From: Escherichia coli
GTDB lineage: Bacteria > Pseudomonadota > Gammaproteobacteria > Enterobacterales > Enterobacteriaceae
Length of the DNA stretch: 64,000 nucleotides
Strand: one strand, 5' to 3'
NCBI RefSeq assembly: GCF_050320075.1
Contig: NZ_CP190018.1
This document shows positions 5,476 to 60,920 of the stretch, in pieces. The number at the start of each line of letters is the position of its first letter. Positions within the stretch are counted from its first letter, which is position 1. The position numbers and the translations under genes were made by a program. The notes under the pieces are model-generated. The model worked only from the letters and a program-made list of their open reading frames with translations, made no database searches and was not told where the DNA came from.

Positions 5476-6462
5476 GTGGATAGAGATCAAACAAACAGCA
5501 GCCTGTTCAATGATGATCCCGTACTTCATGCAACATGGCTGTACTATCAGGAAGGCAAAAGCCAGACTGAAGTTGCAGCTATCATGGGGGTGTCCCGCGT
5601 CACGGTTGTCAAATACCTGCAAACAGCCCGGGAAAATGGACTGGTTCATATCAACCTGGATGTGAATGTCTTTGGCTCTATCGACGCTGCTTTGCAAATT
5701 CGCGATAAATTCAATCTCCAGAGAGTGATCATCGTGCCGGATGGCGAACATGCCGGAAAACGTGATGATACAAAGCTGATGCGGACTCGCCTTTCACGTG
5801 CCGGTGGCATGTATCTGAATCAGGTGATTGAGAATGGTGATGTGCTGGGGGTTGCCTGGGGAAGAACAATCCATCAGATGAGCAAAACCATGACGCCGAA
5901 GTCATGTAAAAATGTCACCGTTATACAGATGCTCGGTTCCATGCCATCTCAGCCAGACCTGACGATCATTGAATCCTCATCGCAAATCGCCTACAAGCTT
6001 TCAGGCCGTGTCGCCTCGCTGCACGTGCCCGCCGTGGTATCAAGCGCCAGACTGGCCATGGAGTTACAGGCAGAGCCTATTATTCGATCGAATTTTGACG
6101 TTCTGACTCGCTGTACGAAAGCCTTTTTTGTCGTGGGTAACGCGCTTGATGAAAATCCCCTGATTCGGGTGGGCGTGCTGAATAAGAAGGAAATGCAGAC
6201 GTATCGGGATTTAGGCGCAGTAGGTGTCATTTGTGGTCGCTTCTATGACAAGGAAGGGATGCCCGTCGTGGCTGATGTTGACCAGCGTATTCTGGGAATC
6301 AGTCTGGCTCAGCTAAGGCAGATTGAACGGAAGATCTTCCTTGCTGGTGGGGAAAGAGGCTATGACGCAACGTTGGGTGCCCTGCTGGGAGGATATGTCA
6401 CGGACCTGATTGTTGATGAAGGAACGGCAGAGTTTTTGCTGGCGTGTGAATTACCACACTAA
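5476..6462 (+). CDS. yjhU: SorC/DeoR-type sugar-binding transcriptional regulator
   Basis: 328 aa; N-terminal HTH (QTEVAAIMGVSRVTVVKYL) and SorC-like sugar-binding domain. Confidence 0.8.
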   Translation: MDRDQTNSSLFNDDPVLHATWLYYQEGKSQTEVAAIMGVSRVTVVKYLQTARENGLVHINLDVNVFGSIDAALQIRDKFNLQRVIIVPDGEHAGKRDDTKLMRTRLSRAGGMYLNQVIENGDVLGVAWGRTIHQMSKTMTPKSCKNVTVIQMLGSMPSQPDLTIIESSSQIAYKLSGRVASLHVPAVVSSARLAMELQAEPIIRSNFDVLTRCTKAFFVVGNALDENPLIRVGVLNKKEMQTYRDLGAVGVICGRFYDKEGMPVVADVDQRILGISLAQLRQIERKIFLAGGERGYDATLGALLGGYVTDLIVDEGTAEFLLACELPH

Positions 6463-6474
6463 AAGAATGAACAA

Positions 6475-6506
6475 CTGCCCCATGTGGATATGGGGCAGGA
6501 TTTTAT
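6475..6506 (+). terminator. Rho-independent terminator (bidirectional) between convergent yjhU and the transporter gene
   Basis: 9-bp stem CTGCCCCAT/ATGGGGCAG with 6-nt loop, followed by GATTTTATTG; A-rich on the other side. Confidence 0.5.
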
Positions 6507-7360
6507 TGATTAGCGGCGATAATAAGAACAATACCCACAATGTATGAAATAAACATGGTCAGCAGCAGTTTATTGGTTCCGGCTGGCGCACTGGCAAATT
6601 CTCTCCAGATGAAGACTCCCCAGATCACGGCAATCATTGTGGCCCCCTGTCCCAGACCGTAGGAAATGGCATACCCCGCCTGACCAGACGCAATCAGACT
6701 GAATGCCAGACCGACACACCAAATCATACCGCCCAGCCAGCCGCAAACATGATCCCGTAAGCTCCCGGAAAAATACATTTTCCCGTTGACCGGTTCTCCT
6801 GAAATAGGTTTTTTCATGACCAGCGTGTTAAGGACAAAGTTCGACAAGAACAGCCCCACGGCAAACAGAACAAGTGCTGAGTAAGGCGTCATCAGACCGC
6901 TGGCAGGCTGGCTGAAATTGTCAGACATGGAGTCCGCCAAGAAGCGGAAAAACCATCCCATGATGATACCCGCCAGAATGGCAGTAATGAGACCTTTATT
7001 ACGGCGAGATTTATCCGCCTCCTGCGTGACACGACCATAGGCTATCGCGGTAAAAATAATGGCGATCACAACGCAGGCGACACCGAGGAACAGAATGAGC
7101 GGATCGCCCTGCGGATTGCCGATATAGGTGGTGATCACACCCAGAGCCAGTGCCAGCCCCACACCCACAGGAAAAGCTACCGCCATACCGGCAAGATTAA
7201 TAGAAGCGACCAGAAGAATATTGGAAATATTGAAGATAATCCCTGCCAGTATTGCCGACATCAGACTACTGCTGCTCGCCTGCTGAATATCAGGTATAAA
7301 ACTGCGACCGGCTTCGCCCATAGAACCCAGCGTGAAGGCAAATAACAAAGAACACAGCAA
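6503..7360 (-). CDS. Polytopic membrane transporter (DMT-superfamily-like sugar permease?), possible 5' frameshift
   Basis: Hydrophobic throughout; frame stays open about 80 nt upstream of the called TTG start and an out-of-frame ATG (MGVPSILLGLFNWIIAVFF) sits there. Confidence 0.45.
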   Translation of the reverse strand: MLCSLLFAFTLGSMGEAGRSFIPDIQQASSSSLMSAILAGIIFNISNILLVASINLAGMAVAFPVGVGLALALGVITTYIGNPQGDPLILFLGVACVVIAIIFTAIAYGRVTQEADKSRRNKGLITAILAGIIMGWFFRFLADSMSDNFSQPASGLMTPYSALVLFAVGLFLSNFVLNTLVMKKPISGEPVNGKMYFSGSLRDHVCGWLGGMIWCVGLAFSLIASGQAGYAISYGLGQGATMIAVIWGVFIWREFASAPAGTNKLLLTMFISYIVGIVLIIAANQ

Positions 7361-7462
7361 TAATCCAATTGAATAATCCCAATAGAATAGAGGGAACTCC
7401 CATTTTTTATTGCTGACAAGTTTAGTTGTATTGTAAGCGACTCGTCAGAACCGTATTGATAT

Positions 7463-9034
7463 TTACTGAGAGCTCAGATCAACTTTCCAGGGCAACAGAT
7501 CGCGTACCCGGTTTGCCGGCCAGTCCTGGATATGTTCAATGACGTAACGCAGCCACTTTTCTGGCTCCACATTGTTCAGACGGCATGTGCCGATCAGCGA
7601 GTACAACACCGCCGCATGTTCACCACCGCTGTCGGAACCCGCGAACATCCAGTTTTTCCGGCCTACGGCCACTCCCCGTAAGGCGTTCTCTGCGATGTTG
7701 TTGTCGATTTCCACCCAGCCATTACTGCAGTACACGTTCAGTGCATCCCACTGTTTCAGCAGGTATGCGAACGCTTTTGCCGTATCTGAGTGACGCGACA
7801 GTGTTTTCATCTGTTGCTGTATCCAGTCATACAGTGACTGCATCAGTGGCGCGGCTCTGGCTTTTCTTGCCGCCAGACGCTGTTCTGCTGAACAGCCCCG
7901 GACCTCTGCCTCGATGGCATACAGTTCACCGATACGCTGCAGGGCTTCCGTGGTGATGTAGGTGGGCGCTCTTGCATGCACATCGTGGATTTTTCTCCGG
8001 GCATGAGCCATACACGCGGCTTCCGTTATTCTGCCGGATTCGTATAACGCCCGGTAACCACCGTAAGCATCGGCCTGAAGCACACCGCTGTAACCGGCCA
8101 GGTGATTTTGTGGATGGATACCTTTCCGGTCCGGACTGTACGCGAACCAGACCGCCGGGGGCATCTGTGAACCGGCGTTACGGTCATCACGGACGTAGAC
8201 CCACAGCCGGGCTGTCCGGGTTTTACCGCTGCCCGGCTCCTGGACCGGGACGGGGATATCATCAGCATGGACTTTACCGGGCATCAGCACATACTGGCGC
8301 AGGACGTCATACAGCGGCTCCAGCAGTTCAGCAACAGCACCTGTCCAGCGCCCCAGTGTGGCACGGCTCAGCTCCACTCCCTGACGACGGTATATTTCTG
8401 ACTGGCGGTATAACGGCAGATGGTCTGCATATTTCCCGGTGACAACATGGGCCAGAAGCCCCGCTCCGGCATAACTGCGTGCAATGGGTTTTGAAGGTAC
8501 TGGTGCCTGCACGATATGGTCGCACCGGCAACAGGCCTGTTTCGGACGTTGTGTTTCGATAACCTTAAAGGCGCTGCTGATAAGCTCCAGTTGCTCTGAC
8601 ACATCACATCCCAGAGAACTGAGTTCACCACCACAGGCAGGACAGCATTCCTCTTCCGGCCGGATAACCCGGGTTTCACGGGGAAGTGAGGCCGGTAACG
8701 GTTTACGGGCTGAAGACTGGCGCAGGGCGGATGGCAGTACCGGGTCATATTGCTCACCCAGCGTTTCCGCCATTTCTTCCTGAAGTGCGCTGATTCGCTC
8801 CTGTGCTTCCTGTATCTGCCGTTCGGTTTTTGCACGAAGTTTTTCTGAGCTTTTACCGAACTGCATACGTTGCAGTTTCGCAACCAGCGCCTTCAGCCGG
8901 TTGATTTCGGAAGCATAAGCCGCCACCCGCTGTGAGAGCAGGCGGTTGTATTCAGCCATCTGGCGGATGGTGTCCTGTTGCGTCTGCAACAGTGCCCGCA
9001 GGCGGGCGTTCTCATGAGCAAGTGAGGTGTCCAT
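7463..9034 (-). CDS. IS66-family transposase (TnpC)
   Basis: 523 aa; typical IS66 transposase with N-terminal coiled coil, CxxC zinc motifs and DDE core. Confidence 0.9.
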
Positions 9035-9053
9035 ATCCTCACTTTACAACGGG

Positions 9054-9401
9054 TTATATGCGGATTCCAGCGCGTTCCGTTCGTTTCGGGTGCTTCCAGT
9101 TGATACCTTCAAGAAGCATGGATAACTGAGCCGGAGTAAGGTGCACCTTGCCGTCACGGGTGACTGGCCAGACGAAGCGGCCCCGCTCCAGGCGTTTGGT
9201 GAAGAGGCACAGTCCGTCACTGTCAGCCCACAACACTTTTATCTGGTCACCCCGGCGTCCGCGGAAGATGAACAGGTGTCCGGAGAACGGGTCATCCTTC
9301 AGGACGTTCTGAACTTTTGATGCCAGGCCGTTAAAGCCATTTCGCATATCGGTGATACCTGCAACCAGCCAGATACGCGAACCTGCAGGGAGAGATATCA
9401 T
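9054..9401 (-). CDS. IS66 Orf2 (TnpB-like accessory protein)
   Basis: 115 aa; conserved IS66 orf2 sequence (WLVAGITDMRNGFNGL). Confidence 0.9.
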   Translation of the reverse strand: MISLPAGSRIWLVAGITDMRNGFNGLASKVQNVLKDDPFSGHLFIFRGRRGDQIKVLWADSDGLCLFTKRLERGRFVWPVTRDGKVHLTPAQLSMLLEGINWKHPKRTERAGIRI

Positions 9402-10078
9402 CAGTGGCTGCTCCCTTTTATTTCGCGGATAAGTGTCTGTAATAACGCCGGCGTCAGTTTACCTTTAAGCCTGAGAGTTCCGGCCGGCAGAACCAGCTCA
9501 CAACACAGACTGTCGGACGGTGTATTTATCTGCTCTGGTTCCTGTGCGGGGGCCGGGATTTTATTATCCGGCTCCGGCGTTAACGTCACGGGAAGCAGTG
9601 CCGGCATATTTTTTCCGGAAGGCAGCAGGCCACCTTTCCGGTATTGATGGCGCCAGTTGAAGAGCAGGTTATCGTTGATTCCGTTTTCCCGGGCGATCTG
9701 CGCCACACAGGCTCCGGGCTGCAGTGACTGCTCCACTAAGGCGATTTTAAACTCATAAGGGAAGTTGGGCCGCCGGGGACGTTTTTTTACCACGGGGGCT
9801 TCGGATATAACGGTGCTTTCAGGACGTACGACTGGTACCGTGGAAAATTGTCCGTAAAGGCAGGCATCAAGTTCCTGCTCCGACATGCCTGCGGGCAAAG
9901 GCCACGAAAGGCCAGCTCTCCGAAAGCGCACGAACATACTACAAACTGTTGATTTTGGTACACCCAGGCGACGCCCGGCCACAACCCGGGGTAAATGTTC
10001 TTCAAAGTGAAGACGTAAAGCTTCAGTGATCCAGGTCCGGTGTTTCATACGATAGTGTCCATTAAAAATGATGGACAT
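9401..10078 (-). CDS. IS66 Orf1 (TnpA-like, HTH accessory protein)
   Basis: 225 aa; start overlaps the orf2 stop, as is typical of IS66 operons. Confidence 0.75.
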   Translation of the reverse strand: MSIIFNGHYRMKHRTWITEALRLHFEEHLPRVVAGRRLGVPKSTVCSMFVRFRRAGLSWPLPAGMSEQELDACLYGQFSTVPVVRPESTVISEAPVVKKRPRRPNFPYEFKIALVEQSLQPGACVAQIARENGINDNLLFNWRHQYRKGGLLPSGKNMPALLPVTLTPEPDNKIPAPAQEPEQINTPSDSLCCELVLPAGTLRLKGKLTPALLQTLIREIKGSSH

Positions 10079-10317
10079 TATTTTTGTAGAGCCGGAGGAA
10101 ACAGACCAGACGGTTTAAATGAGCCGGTTACGTTGTATTCGCCCATGAACCCCAGCAAATCATGGTAATAAAACACATTATTATGGCGACAGCATACGAT
10201 TCCACGATAAACATAAATAACTCCTTGTGGTAGTTATAATCAATCGTTGTGGACAGAGGGAATAGCAGCCATTCTGCGAATGGCTGTCATATGTTATTAA
10301 TTAAAATAAAGCTGTAA

Positions 10318-10959
10318 TTACGCTTTCAAACCATACGTTTTGAATTTTTCAAGGACGATGGTCATTTCGGCTTCAGACAGCACGGGAACATCGTGATGTA
10401 ATCCGCCACATTTGATGTATAAATCAGCCAGCGTCTCGGTTTCACCCGCCAGCCACAACGTCTTTTCCAGCGTGACGTCCATGGCCAGCATACCGTGGTG
10501 CTGCATCAGCAAGGACTTACTTTCTCTGATTCCTTTAGATACACCGTCGGCCAGTTCAGGACTGCCAAAGGTATAATAGGGAATACAGGGAATATGATCC
10601 GTCCCCGATACCGCCACCATATAATGAATGGCCGGAATTGAATGATTATGTATTGCCACCGCCGTGGAATTCACCGCATGCGTATGTATGACAGCATTCA
10701 ATTCTGGTCTGGCTTTATAACACGCCAGATGAAATAACCATTCACTTGATGGTATTTTACCCGCTTCAGGTATTCCCTTATCGTCTACAAAGACAATCAT
10801 GTCCGGCGTCATCTTTGAATAAGCGATCCCACTCGGCGTAATCAACATGCCACCGGTATACCTGGCACTCACATTACCTGATGTTCCTTGATTAAGACCT
10901 GACGCATTCATTTCCCGACAAGTGGAAATGATTTTTTCTGCTAACTTAATCCGTTCCAT
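10318..10959 (-). CDS. Class II aldolase/adducin-family enzyme (putative 5-deoxyribulose-1-P / methylthioribulose-1-P aldolase)
   Basis: 213 aa; class II aldolase fold with histidine-rich metal-site residues; directly downstream of mtnA and mtnK homologues. Confidence 0.7.
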   Translation of the reverse strand: MERIKLAEKIISTCREMNASGLNQGTSGNVSARYTGGMLITPSGIAYSKMTPDMIVFVDDKGIPEAGKIPSSEWLFHLACYKARPELNAVIHTHAVNSTAVAIHNHSIPAIHYMVAVSGTDHIPCIPYYTFGSPELADGVSKGIRESKSLLMQHHGMLAMDVTLEKTLWLAGETETLADLYIKCGGLHHDVPVLSEAEMTIVLEKFKTYGLKA

Positions 10960-20747: not shown

Positions 20748-21938
20748 TTATAAAGAGGGCTTTATATTCCTTTCATAATATTCTGAAGGAGTAATATTAC
20801 CTCTCATGAATAATTGATAGTCATTTTCGGGGTGATGGATATAATATTTACCACTTCCATCTTCACCATGTTGCAAAGGAGGCAGATCAGATAATGCATC
20901 CTTTACAGATACCCAAGATTCCTTATCTTCTGTTAATTTTTGTGGAGGTTCAATTGAAAATAAAGGGTCGTTTGAACCAACCAATATAACCCTTTTTCGG
21001 CGCTGAGGGATTGCATAATGTTCAGAGTTTAATATCCATCCATTCATAGTTTTCATGGTTGATGAGAATTCTTCTTTGACTCTTTCAAAGACCTTACCTT
21101 TTTCCATATTCAACAAACCAGCAACATTTTCAAAAATAAAACCGTTTGGTTTTATCTCATTTAAGAGAGATTTATAATGCATAAAAAGTGAATTTCTTGG
21201 ATCATCCATTGTTCTGGCATTTCCTGCCGTAGAAAATCCCTGGCATGGGGGTCCACCAAGTATCCATAATTGTTTATCAAAATATAATTTCTTAAATCCT
21301 GATATTTTATCTGCTATTTTTGAAAAAGTTTCATTATCAGAAATGCTGCCACATAAAACTTCTTTGTGAACATTGTTTGAATATGTTTGTAGATATTTTT
21401 CTTCAATATCATTCGCCAATAATGGAGTCCATCCAGCCCATTTGAATCCTAGTCCCAGCCCTCCAGCTCCGGAAAATAAATCGATATAATAACCAGTATT
21501 ACCTATCGCCTTCTCTATTTCTTTCGCAATCAGAAAAGCTAAAAATGGGGGCACTGCATTACCGATTTGGGTATTAATTGCTGTTTGACCTCCGAAGAAA
21601 ATAAAATCATCCGGGAACGATTGTAGTCTTGCAGCTTCTCTCTGGGATAGAACACGATCTTGCTCATAGTGAATATGGCAACCATTCCCAGGTCGGTTAA
21701 AATATGTATTGATAGTATATGCAGGCATATCTGGAAGTAATCTACCGTAGTATGTTGAACGGCTTCCTTTTCCTTGTGCATAACTATCCCTAATTTGCTC
21801 TATTCTTTTAGACGGTACATCTAAAGGAATATTTTTCCAGTTGCCACCTGGCGGTACTGAGTTAACAATCATCATATCCAATTCACTTAGCTTTGCTGCC
21901 TTGTGATTGGGAATCATAAATGTTTCACTTTTAGTCAT
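20748..21938 (-). CDS. DNA cytosine-5 methyltransferase with apparently permuted motif order
   Basis: Motif I DLFSGAGGLGLGF, IV GGPPCQGFS, VI FENV, VIII QRRKRV; motif IX/X-like block (LQSFPDDF...IGNAVPP) lies N-terminal to motif I. Confidence 0.85.
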   Translation of the reverse strand: MTKSETFMIPNHKAAKLSELDMMIVNSVPPGGNWKNIPLDVPSKRIEQIRDSYAQGKGSRSTYYGRLLPDMPAYTINTYFNRPGNGCHIHYEQDRVLSQREAARLQSFPDDFIFFGGQTAINTQIGNAVPPFLAFLIAKEIEKAIGNTGYYIDLFSGAGGLGLGFKWAGWTPLLANDIEEKYLQTYSNNVHKEVLCGSISDNETFSKIADKISGFKKLYFDKQLWILGGPPCQGFSTAGNARTMDDPRNSLFMHYKSLLNEIKPNGFIFENVAGLLNMEKGKVFERVKEEFSSTMKTMNGWILNSEHYAIPQRRKRVILVGSNDPLFSIEPPQKLTEDKESWVSVKDALSDLPPLQHGEDGSGKYYIHHPENDYQLFMRGNITPSEYYERNIKPSL

Positions 21939-23571
21939 AATGTTGAAAAATCCTCAATAAACTTTCTTTTTCAGCTAACTCAATCTTATCAAATGAAGAC
22001 AGAAGCTTATTAAATTCATTCAAATCCAATTTGTAAATATTTTTGGCAACATAAGCCTCAATTTTCAACTCAGCATCACAACATCCCTCTATGCAAGAAA
22101 TCACAAGTTGTTTTAATTCAGAATGTTGTAATAATATTTTTTCAGACGGTATTGCAGTTTTTCGTAAGGCTGACAATGATACATGACCAGTAGCTAAAAA
22201 GCTTCTTAATTGAAATTCAAAACAAAGGGAGTTTATAATACCAAGCAAACTAAAGAGCGAATCTTGCGAACCACTTTTATAATAGACCACCCCTAATGAA
22301 TTCCCTGCCAAAGAGTTAGGAGGTATTATCGTTGCAATCATTCGCCTTTTTTGACTCGGGCGTGAAATGTCACGCCATGCAATCCTTACGAAATTAGAAT
22401 TGGATAGAACCTTATCAATTTTTTTCGTTATTCTTAAGCTCTTCTCATTATGAAAATTATACCTCCCAATCATTTTTCCTTTAATGAATAATAATCCGCC
22501 GCCACTTTTTTGTGTCCAGTCACTACTACCAGTTTCATCTATTTCTCTTCCTGCCCATATCTCTCCATTTTTTTCCAGACTACCCCATGTTGGGTATCCC
22601 TCTTGCAGCTTTCTTAACAAATGAACGGCATGAACACCTTGAGATACCGGAATGCTAAGATATTGAGAATCTATACTAGACAAATCAAAAAAACCTAGTG
22701 ATTTAATATTTAAGTTTTTATCATACACACTAAGTTGAATATTATCATTAAGGGATTCACCTTTATTAAAAATAAAAGAACATGAAGAAACATCAGCACC
22801 GCCGAATAATTTAGCCTCAGCTGGATAATAATTTATGCAATCAATCCTCCCTGAATTAAAAAACTTTTCACGTAATATGTACGATTGTTCATCTGCGAAA
22901 AAAGATGCAGGCATAACTATAGCTACCAATCCATTTTTATTACATATTTCTAAGCTAAGTTCTGCACCAACACGTGAAAGATTAGTCCCCCACCCAGCAA
23001 ATTTACGCTTCGGCTGAGAATATGGCAATACTCTTGACAAATAATCATCAAACTCACGAAGAGAGTCTATATACATCGATTTCATAGATGGTTCAAAAAA
23101 ATCGAGCTCTCTAGAATCTGGTTTTATATTCTCCCAAGGCGGATTGGTTATAACACAATCAAAATAATCAACATATTTTTTAAATTCATAAAAAACATCA
23201 CTATTTTTTATAGTAATGTTAATATTTGCACCTGCTAACTTAAGTTCAGACAACGCATTTTTAGCATAAGTGAGGCCTGTATTTTCTATATCGAACAGAT
23301 AAACATTCCACTCTACATCTGGAAAACCATTTATCATCCATTGTTTAATAAGCAATGTAATAAGTCGACCATCCCCTGAAAATGGATCTGCGACATTATA
23401 ACTTTTTTTATCACAGGAATTTATCAATGGTAATAACTTCTCTATCATCAAAAGAGCTATTTTTGGATCTGTATAGTATTTACCTGTCGCTTTTTTAGTG
23501 AATTTTGTTGTCTCGTCCAAGGACAGTGAATTAATTAAATGGATATGTTTCATGTAAAATATCTCTTCCAT
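21931..23571 (-). CDS. N6-adenine DNA methyltransferase (gamma-class, NPPW)
   Basis: Motif I DPFSGDGRL and catalytic NPPW; stop overlaps the start of the C5-methyltransferase gene. Confidence 0.8.
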   Translation of the reverse strand: MEEIFYMKHIHLINSLSLDETTKFTKKATGKYYTDPKIALLMIEKLLPLINSCDKKSYNVADPFSGDGRLITLLIKQWMINGFPDVEWNVYLFDIENTGLTYAKNALSELKLAGANINITIKNSDVFYEFKKYVDYFDCVITNPPWENIKPDSRELDFFEPSMKSMYIDSLREFDDYLSRVLPYSQPKRKFAGWGTNLSRVGAELSLEICNKNGLVAIVMPASFFADEQSYILREKFFNSGRIDCINYYPAEAKLFGGADVSSCSFIFNKGESLNDNIQLSVYDKNLNIKSLGFFDLSSIDSQYLSIPVSQGVHAVHLLRKLQEGYPTWGSLEKNGEIWAGREIDETGSSDWTQKSGGGLLFIKGKMIGRYNFHNEKSLRITKKIDKVLSNSNFVRIAWRDISRPSQKRRMIATIIPPNSLAGNSLGVVYYKSGSQDSLFSLLGIINSLCFEFQLRSFLATGHVSLSALRKTAIPSEKILLQHSELKQLVISCIEGCCDAELKIEAYVAKNIYKLDLNEFNKLLSSFDKIELAEKESLLRIFQHYD

Positions 23572-53101: not shown

Positions 53102-54478
53102 TCAGAACAACAGGTAGTTAGCCAGCAACATGGTAAGCATGCCGCCGAGCGCCGGAATTAAGGTCCTGCGCACTATCATGAACGGTGAACATTCACCGGC
53201 TTTGCTGACCGCAATGATGATCCCTGCGACGGGAGAAATGGAACGTCCCATTCCAGCCATCAGTTGCATCGGCAGAATCATATGTACAGCGCTTTCGCCA
53301 AATTTAGTGGCGATAGCAGGCGCCATGCCGGAGAAAGAGAAAAATGCCGCAACCCCGGAGCCCGTCAGTACAGCGGTTATACCTACCAGCAGCGTCATCA
53401 CCACGGTCATGCTGGCAAAGCCAAAGCCCGCGTTCTGCACCATCTCCAACAGGTAATCCACCGCGCCGATTTTTTGCATTCCCTGCGCGTAGATATCCGC
53501 ACACACTAACAATGAAACCACGCTGGTAAACATCCCGCCCATTCCTTTAAAAAATACCTGTACACCTTTACAGCAGGCACGGAAGTCGCGTTTAACGAAC
53601 AGTTCGCAGACGAACGCCAGTATTGTGCCGACAATCATGGCGGTAACTACGTCGATTTTAATGGTGGAGATGACCAACGGGCTAAAGACCAGCACCAGAA
53701 TCACAGGGAATACAGGCAGGAAAGCATACAGCCCCGGCACTTTTTCGCTATCCTCACTCTGAGGCGTCGTGTCGTCCGCCACCTGGCTGGTCATCACGTG
53801 ACCATCTTTCTTGTCATAATATTTGGCGGTAAAGAAAATCAGCACCGACACTACCAACATAACGGCAACAGCCACCGGCATCTGATAGTGCGCAAAGTAA
53901 ACGGCGGCTTCCATACCGGCATGTTTAGCCGCCAGGTTGGCCGTGCCGACCGCCGGGCCTAAGTCCATAAAGGCGCACAGACCGATCATCGCCGCCGCCG
54001 CTGCTTTACTGACACCCAGTCGTACCAACACCGGGAAGAACGTCACTAATAACATCATCGCCAGCCCGGCGGCGCTGGAAATCGCGACGTGCAGCAACTG
54101 TGCGCAAATATACCCCACAGCCAGGATCACGTAGGGCGCCTTGATGATTTGCAGGGGACGAATGCAGACGTTCACCATTGCATTGGAGGCTTTGATATGA
54201 TCCATATAACTGGCAAAGCCGCCCGCGGCCATGATGATCAAACCGATACCGGCGATCTGTGTGGAGAGTGAATTTTTGGCAAACGTAAAGATATCCAGCC
54301 AGGTGGAACCGGTTGATTTAGCCTTACCGTAGAGAATGCTATTATCAGGATAGAAGACAGCAGTAATGGTCAGTAAAGACAAACCAGCCAGCAGCAATAC
54401 CGTCTGAGGTTGGAAGTTCTTGATGATTAACCATGCTGCAATGATAGTGATCACGATTGCGATTACAAATGCGGTCAT
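53102..54478 (-). CDS. DcuC-family anaerobic C4-dicarboxylate-type transporter
   Basis: 458 aa polytopic membrane protein; DcuC-like blocks (ISSAAGLAMMLLVTFFPVLVRLGVSKAAAAA). Confidence 0.7.
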   Translation of the reverse strand: MTAFVIAIVITIIAAWLIIKNFQPQTVLLLAGLSLLTITAVFYPDNSILYGKAKSTGSTWLDIFTFAKNSLSTQIAGIGLIIMAAGGFASYMDHIKASNAMVNVCIRPLQIIKAPYVILAVGYICAQLLHVAISSAAGLAMMLLVTFFPVLVRLGVSKAAAAAMIGLCAFMDLGPAVGTANLAAKHAGMEAAVYFAHYQMPVAVAVMLVVSVLIFFTAKYYDKKDGHVMTSQVADDTTPQSEDSEKVPGLYAFLPVFPVILVLVFSPLVISTIKIDVVTAMIVGTILAFVCELFVKRDFRACCKGVQVFFKGMGGMFTSVVSLLVCADIYAQGMQKIGAVDYLLEMVQNAGFGFASMTVVMTLLVGITAVLTGSGVAAFFSFSGMAPAIATKFGESAVHMILPMQLMAGMGRSISPVAGIIIAVSKAGECSPFMIVRRTLIPALGGMLTMLLANYLLF

Positions 54479-54761
54479 GAGATCGTCCTTTTGTTTTCCT
54501 ATATATGACGGCTAGTTATATTTAGATCGCCTAATTCTCTATAAATTCAGAGACTGATGCCGTAATGAAATCATGATCGAATCAGGGTAATGTGAGCTAT
54601 GAGAAATTGCTTTTCCCGCTGGGGTTTGTGCGCATGATCTCATAACAGGAAATATGTCAATCACTTTACGGAAGGCTATAGCATAGCATTATTATGTGAT
54701 AAGGTTATTCTCTATACTGAATATAGTATCTTTTTATCCGTAGTGTGTAAGGACGACAATT

Positions 54762-55649
54762 ATGAAAAAAAATACCCCTTTAACATTAGAGGACTATATT
54801 TCAAAAACCGTGCTGTTATGTTCACTAACCGAGTCAGAACACCGTCTTGACGCGTATATGCGTGAACATTTTAATGAACTCCCTTTTCACGGCATCATCG
54901 ACATTGCCCGCAATGCAATGGTGAGTAAAGCAACGGTTGGGCGTTTTTTAAATAAGCTGGGATTTATCGGCTACGCTGACTTCCGTCGGGCATTGGAAAA
55001 TACGCTGACACTGCAAAAAATGGTGCCGCCGTTTGAGCTGGCATCACGCATTCAGGTAAAAGAAAAGATTACCACGGAACAAATTGTTTCCGAATTTAAT
55101 AAGAATGTTACGACCTTGTTCGAGAATTTTAAAGATAATATCAATATTGACAGTCTGGATAAATTTATCGACATTATTTTGAATACCAACCGACATATAT
55201 ACGTAATCGGTCCCGCGTCTTCCTATGCGATGGCGAAACATTTTACTACGCTGATTAAATATTTCCGCGATCGGGTTACATTGCTTTCTATGGACGTTGG
55301 GGAGTTGCCGAAGTCATTGCTGACCGTTACGGATCAGGACGTGCTGATCGTTTTCTCCTACTACCGTTTTAACCGGGTAGTGATTCGCGTTACCGAATGG
55401 TGTTGTAAAAAAGGCGCGACGGTAGTGCTGATTACTAACTCGGAGTCCAACCCGTACGGCAAATTTTGTAATCTGCAGTTTGTGTTGCCGAGCGATACGC
55501 AATCCGTATTCAAAAGCCGCATCGTAGGTTTCTTTTTTATTGAGCTGGTGTTGCATCTGGCCTATGAAAAAGGCGAAGGCGAGGGCAATTTCGAGCAACT
55601 GGAGGAACTGTTTGTCTTTTTTGAAACCTTTTCACCTCTTCCTGGATAA
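54762..55649 (+). CDS. RpiR/MurR-family transcriptional regulator (HTH plus SIS domain)
   Basis: 295 aa; N-terminal HTH (IARNAMVSKATVGRFLNKLGF) and SIS-like C-terminal domain. Confidence 0.8.
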   Translation: MKKNTPLTLEDYISKTVLLCSLTESEHRLDAYMREHFNELPFHGIIDIARNAMVSKATVGRFLNKLGFIGYADFRRALENTLTLQKMVPPFELASRIQVKEKITTEQIVSEFNKNVTTLFENFKDNINIDSLDKFIDIILNTNRHIYVIGPASSYAMAKHFTTLIKYFRDRVTLLSMDVGELPKSLLTVTDQDVLIVFSYYRFNRVVIRVTEWCCKKGATVVLITNSESNPYGKFCNLQFVLPSDTQSVFKSRIVGFFFIELVLHLAYEKGEGEGNFEQLEELFVFFETFSPLPG

Positions 55650-55702
55650 TGACCGCTTCCTGTCGGCACACCTGCTTTCGGCAGGAAGCGAATGGCTCTG
55701 GA

Positions 55703-57073
55703 CTACGCCGTCCGGACATGAATGTAATCGTCGAAGGCTATGACGGTTTCTTCGATCAGCGCGTCATTGCAGCCCAGATAAGACAATGGATCGCAAGCAG
55801 CAACAATCTCCGACTCAGTTAGCGCGTCAATAACGGTCTGATTTTCCAGCATGCACTGCAACAGGTCTTTAGAGCCGTCTGCGTCTTTTAATAACGCTTT
55901 CATCAGATCGTAAGCGGCACCACGCCCGATTTTCTCAGCCAATACCATGGTGACGGATTCCGACATAATGAAGTTCTTTGAAGCGGCGAAGTTGCTGCGC
56001 ATCTTCTCTTTGTCCACCACCAGATGCGTAATTAACCGGACAGCACGTTCAAGGCTGGCCGACAAGGCCAGCGCCGACTCCGGTACCAGCGTCCAGTTGA
56101 GTACGCGGGCGGAGGCAGCACGCACGTCACACTGATCGAGAAGGCTGGTTGCACCAGAGGCATAGTTCCAGCCCATGCGGGAAAGCGTCTGGATCATATT
56201 GCTCGCGCGGGGATTCGTCTTGTGTGGCATCGTACTGGATCCTCCACCGCCTTCGCCTTCACGCAACTCGCCCACGGACGTGCGGCCCTGCGTTTCAACG
56301 TCGTTGGCCATGCGACACAGCGTGCCATGCACCAGGGCAAAAAACTGCACCACTTCGACTACATGATCCTGACTGGCATTGCTCATACCGACAGGGCATG
56401 ACAACCCTAACGCGCCCATTAATTGCTTACGTATCGCCATTCCCTGGCTGCCGACGGAGGCCAGGTTGCCGACCGCGCCACCAAACAGGCCGGTAGTCGC
56501 TGCCGGGTAGAGGCGATCCAGGCGCTGAAGGTGGCGGGTTAGCTCGGACAGATAGCTGCTGACGTGTAGCCCCCACGTCGTGGCGGAAGCATCGACGGAA
56601 TTCGTTCTGGCGACCATCACCGTATGTCGGTGCTCAAGCGCCATAGCTTTCAACGTTTCGCCCAACTGCACCAACTGTCTGCGCAGTAATTGCAGGGTTT
56701 GCTTCATGCGCATGGCCAGGGCGGTATCCAGCAGATCCTGAGTCGTGCAGCCCCAGTGAAGGTATTTTTTGACCAAAGGGGAACCCGCATCGGCAATTTG
56801 ATCAACCAGAGGCTTAATCGCCATACCGACGGAACGCGTTTCCCTGGCGAGGCGCGGCCAGTCTATTTTCAGCGTCTGGCAGGCGGCGGAAATTTCCGCG
56901 GCGGCTTCAGGGGGAATAATACCTAACTCAGTCTGCACATGCGCGATGGTTGCTTCAAAGGTCAGCCAACAGCGAAGAAGATTATCATCGGACCAGATTG
57001 ATTTCATCTCCGGCTGCGTGAAGAGAGAGGAATACAATTCTGAATCAAATACCGAACTTTGACTGCCTGGCAT
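55703..57073 (-). CDS. Fumarate-lyase superfamily enzyme (adenylosuccinate lyase / 3-carboxymuconate cycloisomerase-like)
   Basis: Signature GSSTMPHKTNP; start taken at ATG 57073 (MPGSQSS...) with AGGAG upstream. Confidence 0.75.
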   Translation of the reverse strand: MPGSQSSVFDSELYSSLFTQPEMKSIWSDDNLLRCWLTFEATIAHVQTELGIIPPEAAAEISAACQTLKIDWPRLARETRSVGMAIKPLVDQIADAGSPLVKKYLHWGCTTQDLLDTALAMRMKQTLQLLRRQLVQLGETLKAMALEHRHTVMVARTNSVDASATTWGLHVSSYLSELTRHLQRLDRLYPAATTGLFGGAVGNLASVGSQGMAIRKQLMGALGLSCPVGMSNASQDHVVEVVQFFALVHGTLCRMANDVETQGRTSVGELREGEGGGGSSTMPHKTNPRASNMIQTLSRMGWNYASGATSLLDQCDVRAASARVLNWTLVPESALALSASLERAVRLITHLVVDKEKMRSNFAASKNFIMSESVTMVLAEKIGRGAAYDLMKALLKDADGSKDLLQCMLENQTVIDALTESEIVAACDPLSYLGCNDALIEETVIAFDDYIHVRTA

Positions 57074-57491
57074 TATAAACTCCTGTGACGTACGTCGCTG
57101 ATAACAGCATATCATTCAAATCAAATTTAACTGCGTAACGAGTATTCTGGAGCAATTCTCACTGCGTAAACAGGGGAATATGCATTTCCCATATGTTCCG
57201 GGGATCACAATATGAAAAACGTGATGAGATTAACATAAATTCGCCATTTATATCTCAGTTCGGAGAGAATCAATTAAATCGCTATTATTTATTTTCAATG
57301 AAATCTTCACAAATAACAACGCCAGCCATTAAGCCCTATTTTATGTGCGTAAAATCACATTTTATTATGAGAAAACGCAATTCCCGTATTCGCTCTGCAT
57401 TAATGTAACTAAAAATTAATGGCGCCTGATAACAACTATTTAATCCTGCATCAAGGGCGAACATATTTATTTTTTAAAGGGGAAGAACAGC

Positions 57492-58541
57492 ATGAGCATT
57501 AAAGCCAAAACATTATTATTCATTGCCTTATCTGGGGCTAGCACGTCAGCGCTGGCGATTAGCGTTTATGAGGATAAAGCCACCACGCTGGATATTTACG
57601 GGCGTATTGAGTGGCAGTTAGCGAATGGAGAAGCATCATTCGCAAATGATGACTCCCGTAGCCAAATAGGGGGGCGCTTAGGGATTTATTTAACCCGCGA
57701 CCTCCCTTTACTGGAAGATACTAAACTTGTCGGTCGCCTGGAGTGGCAGGTTCGTACTGAAAAAGATGATAATAAAACCAAAGATAAAGATCTCGACGCC
57801 CGTTACGCCTATCTGGGGCTTTCTCATGCTAAATATGGCGAGCTGATTGCCGGTCGTACTAAAAACCCGTTATATCAGGTCATGCGCATGACGGACAAAT
57901 ATAAAAACTTTACGCCAAACGTATATAACTACGGTATTACCACTATTGACGATTCTTACCAATTTAACCGTCAGGATGGCACCCTGCAATGGAACGGTGA
58001 TTTTAGCGGGCATCAGGTGCAACTGGCTTACGTTTTTGGAAATGGCAATAGCGACAACGATGCACTTGATAACGGCATGATGGCCAGTTATCGCAAGATG
58101 ATTAAATTCGGCGACGTAAAAATCACACCGGCGATTGCCGTCAGTCAATATAACCGTCAGGACGGCGTAAAAACCACCGACGGCCGCAAGAAGCACAGCC
58201 AGGTAATGGGCGGGCTGCAGTTCGATTATAGCGATTTGTCATTAGCCGTAACGGCGGGTAAGGTCTCCATAGAAAGAGACAATAAATCTGACAATGACTA
58301 TACGAGTTTCGATTCCGTTGCCTCCTATCAATTCACCAAAGAATTCAAAGTGCTTGGCGGGTACAGCATCCTGGATGAAGCCGACGAGGATGTGTACGAA
58401 CACGAGGGCTGGCGAATTGAATCGCAGCTAACCTTAGCTAAGAATGTGTATTTATCAGCAACTTACCTTAATACGCTGGCCAGTAAAAACGAGAAGGTCA
58501 ACGATGACGCCATTATCGTCGGGTTGCGCTACGACTTCTGA
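57492..58541 (+). CDS. Outer-membrane beta-barrel porin
   Basis: Signal peptide (MSIKAKTLLFIALSGASTSALA); alternating amphipathic strands; C-terminal ...LRYDF. Confidence 0.65.
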   Translation: MSIKAKTLLFIALSGASTSALAISVYEDKATTLDIYGRIEWQLANGEASFANDDSRSQIGGRLGIYLTRDLPLLEDTKLVGRLEWQVRTEKDDNKTKDKDLDARYAYLGLSHAKYGELIAGRTKNPLYQVMRMTDKYKNFTPNVYNYGITTIDDSYQFNRQDGTLQWNGDFSGHQVQLAYVFGNGNSDNDALDNGMMASYRKMIKFGDVKITPAIAVSQYNRQDGVKTTDGRKKHSQVMGGLQFDYSDLSLAVTAGKVSIERDNKSDNDYTSFDSVASYQFTKEFKVLGGYSILDEADEDVYEHEGWRIESQLTLAKNVYLSATYLNTLASKNEKVNDDAIIVGLRYDF

Positions 58542-58551
58542 GGAAAGAATA

Positions 58552-59316
58552 ATGAAAAAAATCATGTTGTTGCTGGCAGGACTGGCGCTGATGGTCGACG
58601 CGCAGGCCGATACGATTATTGCAGCCAAACCGCAGGATAAACTGAGCGGAGTCAATAAATCCATTGCGCTCTACGGAAATTCATATACACATTATAACAA
58701 TAATATAAATACCCGACTGCGCGATCTCAGCCGTTCGCTGTTACCGAATGGCGCTAAAGACTATATGTTCCGGGGAATCACCATTTCTTCTGGACGTTTA
58801 GGCTGGCACCTTCCGAATCTTGAATTCCAGAATACGCTGCAAAAATGGGACGTGGTGATATTTCAGGGGAATTCAACAGAGCCTTTTTCCGCTAAAAAAG
58901 ATTCGCGTCACTATTTCACGGAGTCCGCCGTCAAGATGGCAGATATGGCTCACAAAGAGGGCTCGCGTGTGGTTTATTTTATGACCTGGGCCAGCAAGGA
59001 TAAACCCGAGCAAACTGAAAAACTGGAGAAAGCCTATCTGAATATAGCCAGTAAAACCGGGGGATACGTCGCGCCGGTCGGGCTGGCCTTCAGTAACGCA
59101 ATTAAGACGCATCCTGAAATCAATCTGTATCATAGCGATGGAAATCACCCCTCGCTGGCGGGAACCTATCTGGCTGCCAGCGTGCTGTTCGCCACGCTGT
59201 ATGACCAGTCACCGATAGGCGGCGCACTGCCTGCCGACAGCGATATGACCGAGCAAACCGCCAAAGCGCTGCAGCAGGTGGCATGGGATACCGTCCAGGA
59301 ATTCCGTGCTAACTAA
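58552..59316 (+). CDS. Exported SGNH/GDSL-like hydrolase (putative esterase)
   Basis: ATG at 58552 after GAGGA; signal peptide; DGNHPS motif resembling SGNH catalytic block V. Confidence 0.45.
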   Translation: MKKIMLLLAGLALMVDAQADTIIAAKPQDKLSGVNKSIALYGNSYTHYNNNINTRLRDLSRSLLPNGAKDYMFRGITISSGRLGWHLPNLEFQNTLQKWDVVIFQGNSTEPFSAKKDSRHYFTESAVKMADMAHKEGSRVVYFMTWASKDKPEQTEKLEKAYLNIASKTGGYVAPVGLAFSNAIKTHPEINLYHSDGNHPSLAGTYLAASVLFATLYDQSPIGGALPADSDMTEQTAKALQQVAWDTVQEFRAN

Positions 59317-59640: not shown

Positions 59641-60087
59641 CTAGCTGCATCGTTCTCGCAGCTTAATGGCCAATCCTTCGGCCCCCCAGATGGACATCAT
59701 CCTCTTCAGGTTATAAGCCAGTACATGCAGACTGATTTCTGTGCTGACGTTTTTAAACCGTTGCGTCAGGAAGTGAGTCGCTCCCATCCACATCTTAATT
59801 GTCCCGAACGGATGCTCTACCGTTTGCTTTCGCACGACAGCTGTTTGTGGCGATGCATTAAGCCTGGCTTGCATGTCTTCCATTTCTGCTTCATGAACCC
59901 AGCGCTTTATACGCCTCGGATCGCGTTTTGATGTGGTGCACCTTGACCGCTGACTGCAATCGCGACAGGCAATATTGTTAAAGTACATTTGCTGTTCTAA
60001 ACCATCCTCAACCATCGTAAATCGGTTCTGAAGTTCTTCACCCATCGGGCAAATATAAATATCTTTTTCCTGGTCATATTTGAACAA
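59641..60087 (-). pseudogene. DDE transposase C-terminal fragment (IS5/IS1182-like), truncated
   Basis: 148-aa ORF with transposase-like C-terminus (HPFGTIKMWMGATHFL); no N-terminal part. Confidence 0.5.
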
Positions 60088-60222
60088 TGAACGATTGAAA
60101 AGACCTTTACGGTCAGCGCCAGAGGTATCGCCTTTTGGTACTAAGGCTACGGCACCTAAGTCCTGCGGGTGATGCTGCCAACTTACTGATTTAGTGTATG
60201 ATGGTGTTTTTGAGGTGCTCCA

Positions 60223-60498
60223 GTGGCTTCTGTTTCTATCAGCTGTCCCTCCTGTTCAGCTACTGACGGAGTGGTGCGTAACGGCAAAAGCACCGCCGGA
60301 CATCAGCGCTATCTCTGCTCTCACTGCCGTAAAACATGGCAACTGCAGTTCACTTACACCGCTTCTCAACCCGGTACGCACCAGAAAATCATTGATATGG
60401 CCATGAATGGCGTTGGATGCCGGGCAACAGCCCGCATTATGGGCGTTGGCCTCAACACGATTTTACGTCACTTAAAAAACTCAGGCCGCAGTCGGTAA
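60223..60498 (+). CDS. insA: IS1 InsA
   Basis: Identical protein to the copy-1 InsA. Confidence 0.95.
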
Positions 60499-60920
60499 CC
60501 TCGCGCATACAGCCGGGCAGTGACGTCATCGTCTGCGCGGAAATGGACGAACAGTGGGGCTATGTCGGGGCTAAATCGCGCCAGCGCTGGCTGTTTTACG
60601 CGTATGACAGGCTCCGGAAGACGGTTGTTGCGCACGTATTCGGTGAACGCACTATGGCGACGCTGGGGCGTCTTATGAGCCTGCTGTCACCCTTTGACGT
60701 GGTGATATGGATGACGGATGGCTGGCCGCTGTATGAATCCCGCCTGAAGGGAAAGCTGCACGTAATCAGCAAGCGATATACGCAGCGAATTGAGCGGCAT
60801 AACCTGAATCTGAGGCAGCACCTGGCACGGCTGGGACGGAAGTCGCTGTCGTTCTCAAAATCGGTGGAGCTGCATGACAAAGTCATCGGGCATTATCTGA
60901 ACATAAAACACTATCAATAA
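60417..60920 (+). CDS. insB: IS1 InsB
   Basis: Differs from the copy-1 InsB at one residue (R vs S). Confidence 0.95.

Follow-up and report, generated by a model that had tools for sequence, protein, structure and literature searches.

The transporter gene called at 6503..7360 in the window, a 64,000-nt stretch of Escherichia coli DNA, is the 3' part of a permease gene that has been split at codon 28 by an IS66-family element, a reading in which we have very high confidence. The event is an ordinary insertional knockout, and a frameshift was not involved. The permease has almost certainly been inactivated, a loss of function that we infer from the sequence, and mtnK, mtnA and ald2, which lie upstream of it, are intact. 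The features on which this reading is based are compiled in Table 1.

Table 1. Features of the interrupted permease gene, the inserted element and the surrounding operon (positions are those of the window)
Feature	Position	Strand	Evidence or remark
yjhU/mtnR, operon repressor, convergent to permease gene	5476..6462	+	Pfam Sugar-bind E = 9e-80; PMC12632272
Two-way terminator-like hairpin between permease and mtnR stop codons	6475..6498	.	Lies between the two convergent genes
3' permease fragment	6503..7432	-	Native codons 26-334 plus stop; 100% identical to intact E. coli genes up to 7432
285-aa ORF from TTG	6503..7360	-	Residues 50-334 of the 334-aa permease; no Shine-Dalgarno sequence before TTG
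Out-of-frame ATG ORF, 37 codons, hydrophobic (MGVPSILLGLFNWIIAVFFVICLHAGFYGRSRSQFYT, then stop)	7290..7403	-	Unchanged in intact genes
Target-site duplication, copy 2, AATACAAC read on minus strand	7425..7432	-	Direct sequence comparison
IS66-family element, ISCro1 type, 2,699 bp	7433..10131	-	End of match to uninterrupted genomes and flanking 8-bp duplication
Terminal inverted repeat beside tnpC, GTAAGCGACTCGTCAGAACCGT	7433..7454	.	16 of 22 first nt match other end
tnpC, IS66 DDE transposase, 523 aa	7463..9034	-	Pfam DDE_Tnp_IS66 (PF03050) E = 2.5e-103
tnpB accessory gene	9054..9401	-	ORF; identical protein is TnpB in RefSeq
tnpA accessory gene	9401..10078	-	ORF; identical protein is TnpA in RefSeq
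Terminal inverted repeat beside tnpA, GTAACCGGCTCATTTAAACCGT on minus strand	10110..10131	.	End comparison
5' permease stub	10128..10214	-	Native ATG 10214, 28 codons MFIVESYAVAIIMCFITMICWGSWANTT, then IS-supplied TAA
Target-site duplication, copy 1, AATACAAC	10132..10139	-	Direct sequence comparison
9-bp hairpin in ald2-permease spacer	10265..10287	-	Perfect stem, 3-nt loop: CAGCCAUUC GCA GAAUGGCUG
ald2, class II aldolase of DHAP shunt, intact	10318..10959	-	Length and protein accession as in SE15; PMC12632272
mtnA, intact	10990..12105	-	Length and protein accession as in intact strains
mtnK, intact; operon promoters upstream	12115..13374	-	Length and protein accession as in intact strains; PMC12632272

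In E. coli SE15, the corresponding gene is an uninterrupted 1,005-nt CDS encoding 334 aa (WP_000471144.1, "GRP family sugar transporter"), located directly downstream of mtnK, mtnA and a class II aldolase gene and convergent to yjhU. The intact 334-aa frame is absent from the window: it is broken after codon 28 by the 2,699-bp IS and is otherwise identical to the intact gene. The native permease codons 1-28 (10214..10131) lie beyond the far side of the IS, with an AAGGAG 7 nt upstream of ATG 10214 (AAGGAG-N7-ATG), and the near IS end directly abuts native permease coding sequence. When the IS and one copy of the target-site duplication were removed in silico, a 1,005-nt CDS resulted that differs from the SE15 gene at 0 of 1,005 nt and has an identical translation. 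The translation of the remnant equals residues 26-334 of the SE15 protein, and codons 26-28 are present twice because of the target duplication. From the N-terminal sequence of the SE15 protein (MFIVESYAVAIIMCFITMICWGSWANTTKLVSNKKWEFPLFYWDYSIGLLLCSLL...), the called TTG is recognized as the codon for native Leu50. The 285-aa ORF, beginning as it does within transmembrane helix 2, is therefore an artefact of annotation. In RefSeq, by contrast, the remnant is listed as a normal CDS (WP_215197741.1, 285 aa, "GRP family sugar transporter") with a TTG start and without a pseudogene flag (strain YZLc1-3; NZ_CP123240.1), which is misleading; the 28-codon stub at 10128-10214 has no RefSeq annotation.

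The inserted element has the properties of a complete member of its family. Transposition of IS66-family elements leaves a signature consisting of an 8-bp duplication and inverted repeats that begin with GTAA. Since terminal repeats and the 8-bp duplication are too short or imperfect for a general repeat search, they were located by direct comparison. The inverted repeats are imperfect, begin with GTAA and agree at 16 of their first 22 positions, and the 8-bp duplication is perfect on both flanks of the IS. TnpC contains, in addition to the DDE domain, zf-IS66, LZ_Tnp_IS66 and IS66_C (PF13005, PF13007 and PF13817), i.e., all four IS66 transposase domains. The assignment to ISCro1 follows the RefSeq name of the identical transposase WP_000381395.1 ("IS66-like element ISCro1 family transposase"). 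In its tnpA-tnpB-tnpC layout, IS66 DDE transposase, length of ~2.7 kb, imperfect GTAA repeats and 8-bp duplication the element resembles ISCro1 and the IS66 family, and nothing about it is unusual; only the insertion site is specific, at codon 28 of the DHAP-shunt permease gene.

A second, independent ISCro1-type insertion was observed in the same operon, within ald2 of E. coli 98232 (NZ_CP173446.1, locus L003, 2360-5080). It has the same orientation and its own 8-bp duplication, GGACATGA, and RefSeq represents the ald2 gene of this strain as two pieces, one a pseudogene fragment and the other a 160-aa 'L-fuculose-phosphate aldolase'. Two independent ISCro1 insertions in the same orientation could hint at an interaction between operon and IS or at a target preference.

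These observations are best explained by the following course of events. An ISCro1-type IS66-family element of 2,699 bp transposed into permease codons 26-28, duplicating the 8-bp target AATACAAC and dividing the gene into a 28-codon 5' stub and a 309-codon 3' remnant. The stub retains the native ribosome-binding site and ATG and now stops at a TAA within the IS end, and the remnant is left with neither a start codon nor a ribosome-binding site of its own. In the start-less open frame of 84 nt in front of the called gene, native codons 26-49 are joined to four codons from the IS end, and the called TTG, as native Leu50, lies in the middle of transmembrane helix 2. Because there are zero substitutions compared with intact alleles, the event appears to be evolutionarily recent.

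All intact E. coli copies were annotated by the same pipeline; therefore, independent homologs were sought to support the position of the true start. By tblastn against plasmid records we found homologs in Flammeovirga (57% identity), Parabacteroides (52%), Spirosoma oryzicola (42%) and Piscirickettsia (38%); in all four, the alignment begins at residue 1 to 3 of the E. coli sequence. A multiple alignment shows conservation of the helix-1 motif M-F-x-I-x-x-Y...C-W-G-S-W-A-N and of the motif F-Y-W-D-Y-S-I-G. The NCBIfam RhaT model covers residues 10-329 of the intact protein, and the remnant is reached only from model position 63 onward. In a hydropathy scan helix 1 comprises residues 2-20 and helix 2 about residues 40-64; thus, the insertion point immediately follows helix 1, and helix 2 contains the called TTG. 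The first-pass annotation had allowed for orthologs that start at the called TTG. This is not what we found: the orthologs start at an ATG 49 codons upstream of it, preceded by AAGGAG, and this N-terminus is kept down to 38% identity.

We compared positions 6400..7500 by megablast with 5,426 complete E. coli genomes. At least 80% of this query is present in 1,214 of them. In all but three of the genomes listed, the match has 100% identity only from 7432 downward and stops exactly at the IS end. A 120-nt probe spanning the junction was matched in full in 2 of the 5,426 complete genomes, YZLc1-3 (chicken, China) and Ec-U3 (human), and about 1,200 genomes have the region without the junction. Over its first 50 kb, the window has 2 differences from YZLc1-3.

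Several details that had been noted earlier on this locus were confirmed, and the interpretations attached to them have to be revised in part. As the first-pass annotation had stated, the reading frame of TTG 7360 is open upstream of the called start: it continues for 84 nt (7444..7361) up to an in-frame TGA at 7447..7445, and no ATG, GTG or TTG occurs in frame within this stretch. The translation upstream reads ...SSQ, stop, ISIRF, stop, RVAYNTTKLVSNKKWEFPLFYWDYSIGL-L-LCSLL.... The out-of-frame ATG with a hydrophobic product was likewise found, at 7403, and so was an IS66 end within about 100 bp, its outermost base 7433 lying 73 nt from the called TTG and the stop codon of the transposase gene at 7465..7463. 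The start-less main frame and the nearby ATG with its hydrophobic 37-aa peptide had led to the suggestion of a small 5' frameshift, according to which the peptide from ATG 7403 is the true N-terminus, displaced by an indel. However, no frame-shifting indel relative to intact orthologs was found: from 7432 downward the window matches intact genes without gaps at 100% identity, and ATG 7403 and its ORF are unchanged in the intact SE15 gene, from which the reconstructed gene does not differ. Because it is present unchanged in intact copies, this ORF is a mere off-frame reading, arising by chance in a region that encodes a membrane helix. Moreover, the real N-terminus, MFIVESYAVAII..., is conserved in distant homologs and is not the same as the out-of-frame peptide. 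We consider a frameshift to be virtually out of the question. The same degree of improbability applies to the idea that the junction between IS and gene is an assembly artefact caused by an IS copy misplaced in a repeat. It is true that elements of the ISCro1 type occur in several copies, at 5-6 places in each of the two matching genomes, and that repeats commonly cause misassembly, but here a full-length element is flanked by a perfect 8-bp duplication, the two gene halves fit exactly, and the identical junction exists in two independently sequenced complete genomes from different hosts.

The possibility that the IS replaced the promoter or the 5' end of the gene deserves slightly more attention, although it is still very improbable. 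A shortened yet working transporter would then be produced from TTG 7360 or ATG 7321, with transcription either beginning in the IS end or continuing out of tnpC. Both in-frame codons exist, the IS genes and the remnant are co-oriented, which makes read-through transcripts plausible, and RefSeq annotates the remnant as a CDS. However, when the minus strand close to the IS end was scanned with a consensus, no sigma-70-like site emerged, and TTG 7360, TTG 7348 and ATG 7321 all lack a Shine-Dalgarno sequence in front of them. A fusion to tnpC is precluded by the in-frame stops at 7465..7463 and 7447..7445, and the product would be missing helix 1, including the CWGSWAN motif, along with some or all of helix 2, two helices that are conserved in the family. 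Furthermore, there was no promoter specific to the native gene that could have been replaced (PMC12632272), so that the earlier suggestion of a promoter replacement does not hold. An outward-reading IS promoter was considered as well and dropped, as the consensus scan was empty both at the IS end and before the remnant. Read-through RNA from the operon or from the IS across the remnant is plausible, since IS, operon and remnant are all on one strand. Insertional disruption of the coding sequence thus stands as the preferred reading. The inactivation that had been proposed earlier is supported by these results, but the insertion site is inside the coding sequence at codon 28 and not upstream of the gene.

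Judged by its sequence, the intact 334-aa permease is a GRP/DMT-family member: it scores above the Pfam gathering thresholds for PF07168 (Ureide_permease, 70 bits, cut-off 27) and PF06800 (Sugar_transport, 30.3 bits, cut-off 26.3). In these Pfam scores it resembles the GRP (glucose/ribose porter, RhaT/GlcU-like) and ureide-permease branches of the drug/metabolite transporter superfamily. A Kyte-Doolittle scan of the intact protein gave 8 clear hydrophobic segments, and two probable weaker ones, judged by eye at about 105-125 and 280-300, would bring the total to about ten. It differs, however, from the RhaT and GlcU equivalogs, and an identity with either was rejected, because it remains far below both NCBIfam cut-offs (NF010022, 27.6 bits vs 369; TIGR00776, 34.9 vs 319.6). 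A sequence search of PDB chains for relatives of the permease gave no meaningful hit (best E = 0.8). The homologs in Bacteroidota with 52-57% identity (plasmid records L005, 4077-7957, and L006, 1473-6002) adjoin genes for ribokinase, nucleoside hydrolase and ADP-ribosylglycohydrolase. By analogy, these neighbours point to a ribose-type or nucleoside-derived putative substrate for this clade of transporters.

The interrupted gene is the fourth gene of the DHAP-shunt operon of the leuX island (Huening et al. 2024, PMC10986504; 2025, PMC12632272). It comes next after mtnK-mtnA-ald2, shares their strand and is convergent to yjhU/mtnR. The gene order and the yjhF-yjhG-yjhH-yjhI neighbourhood correspond to those known for this operon, and the accessions of MtnK, MtnA, aldolase and YjhU are those found in intact strains; for mtnR, the length, too, is the same as in intact strains. 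The difference is that the fourth gene is interrupted by an IS here, whereas it is uninterrupted in ATCC 25922 and in about 1,200 complete genomes. In the published operon, the permease gene is co-transcribed with mtnK-mtnA-ald2 from two start sites upstream of mtnK, and its product was termed a "putative permease of unknown function" (PMC12632272). MtnK, MtnA and Ald2 convert 5-deoxyribose or methylthioribose into DHAP and an aldehyde, and on 5-deoxyribose operon expression rises about 7.5 log2-fold, with YjhU (renamed MtnR) acting as repressor and CRP as activator (PMC12632272). The 103-nt spacer between ald2 and the permease gene folds better than shuffled sequences (z = -3.0) and contains a perfect 9-bp hairpin that has no U-tract behind it and is conserved in SE15. 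This hairpin may be an intra-operon element of mRNA processing or stability.

The case is one of a routine IS knockout of a known operon gene, an IS-mediated inactivation of the ordinary kind. The permease gene comes last in the operon, with mtnR running towards it from the other side; we therefore infer that the insertion spares the three enzyme genes and mtnR and that only the permease should be hit. With mtnK-mtnA-ald2 as the only genes supplied, the K-12 strain, itself devoid of the permease, grows on 5 mM 5-deoxyribose (PMC10986504); therefore, the phenotypic cost may be small, and absence of the permease may have consequences only when the substrate is scarce. The main value of these results lies in a correction of annotation: the 285-aa protein WP_215197741.1 represents the remnant of an IS-disrupted gene that deserves a pseudogene flag. 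In addition, they describe a rare and recent knockout of a putative importer of the DHAP shunt, the pathway by which extraintestinal pathogenic strains grow on 5'-deoxynucleosides, and the strains carrying it are possible natural controls for the role of the permease. A more far-reaching prospect, which we put forward as a speculation with a rather small chance of proving right, is that this allele is a natural permease-null with enzymes and MtnR intact that could reveal whether the transporter, a relative of ureide permeases, is a high-affinity importer of 5-deoxyribose, methylthioribose or 5'-deoxynucleosides, and that the operon promoter under MtnR/CRP control may drive tnpA-tnpB-tnpC, given the sense orientation of the IS at the end of this strongly inducible operon. 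Expression of the ISCro1 transposase would then be tied to the supply of 5-deoxyribose as a carbon source.

A scan of the window for tRNA genes found none, which places the leuX end of the island outside the window. For the segment at 15532-23553 and for the stretches rich in mobile elements, the names used here are those of the RefSeq annotation of a near-identical record. Positions 15532-23553 of the island contain a restriction and defence block with McrB/McrC-family genes, a type IIS endonuclease of the Alw26I/Eco31I/Esp3I type and two methyltransferases, one Dcm-type and one adenine-specific. Dense mobile-element debris occupies 24148-50608 and 59641-60920, comprising frameshifted or partial IS3, IS256 and IS110 elements and two IS1A copies, together with a CP4-44-like module (CbtA/YeeU toxin-antitoxin, antirestriction, DUF932, YagK/YfjJ). 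A gene of the H-NS family is located at 38270-38710. Between the IS1A copies, a metabolic islet at 51320-59316 encodes an NAD-malic enzyme, DcuC, a MurR/RpiR regulator, a class II fumarase/aspartase-family protein, a porin and a DUF4886 protein. This islet could be an IS1-bounded composite unit.
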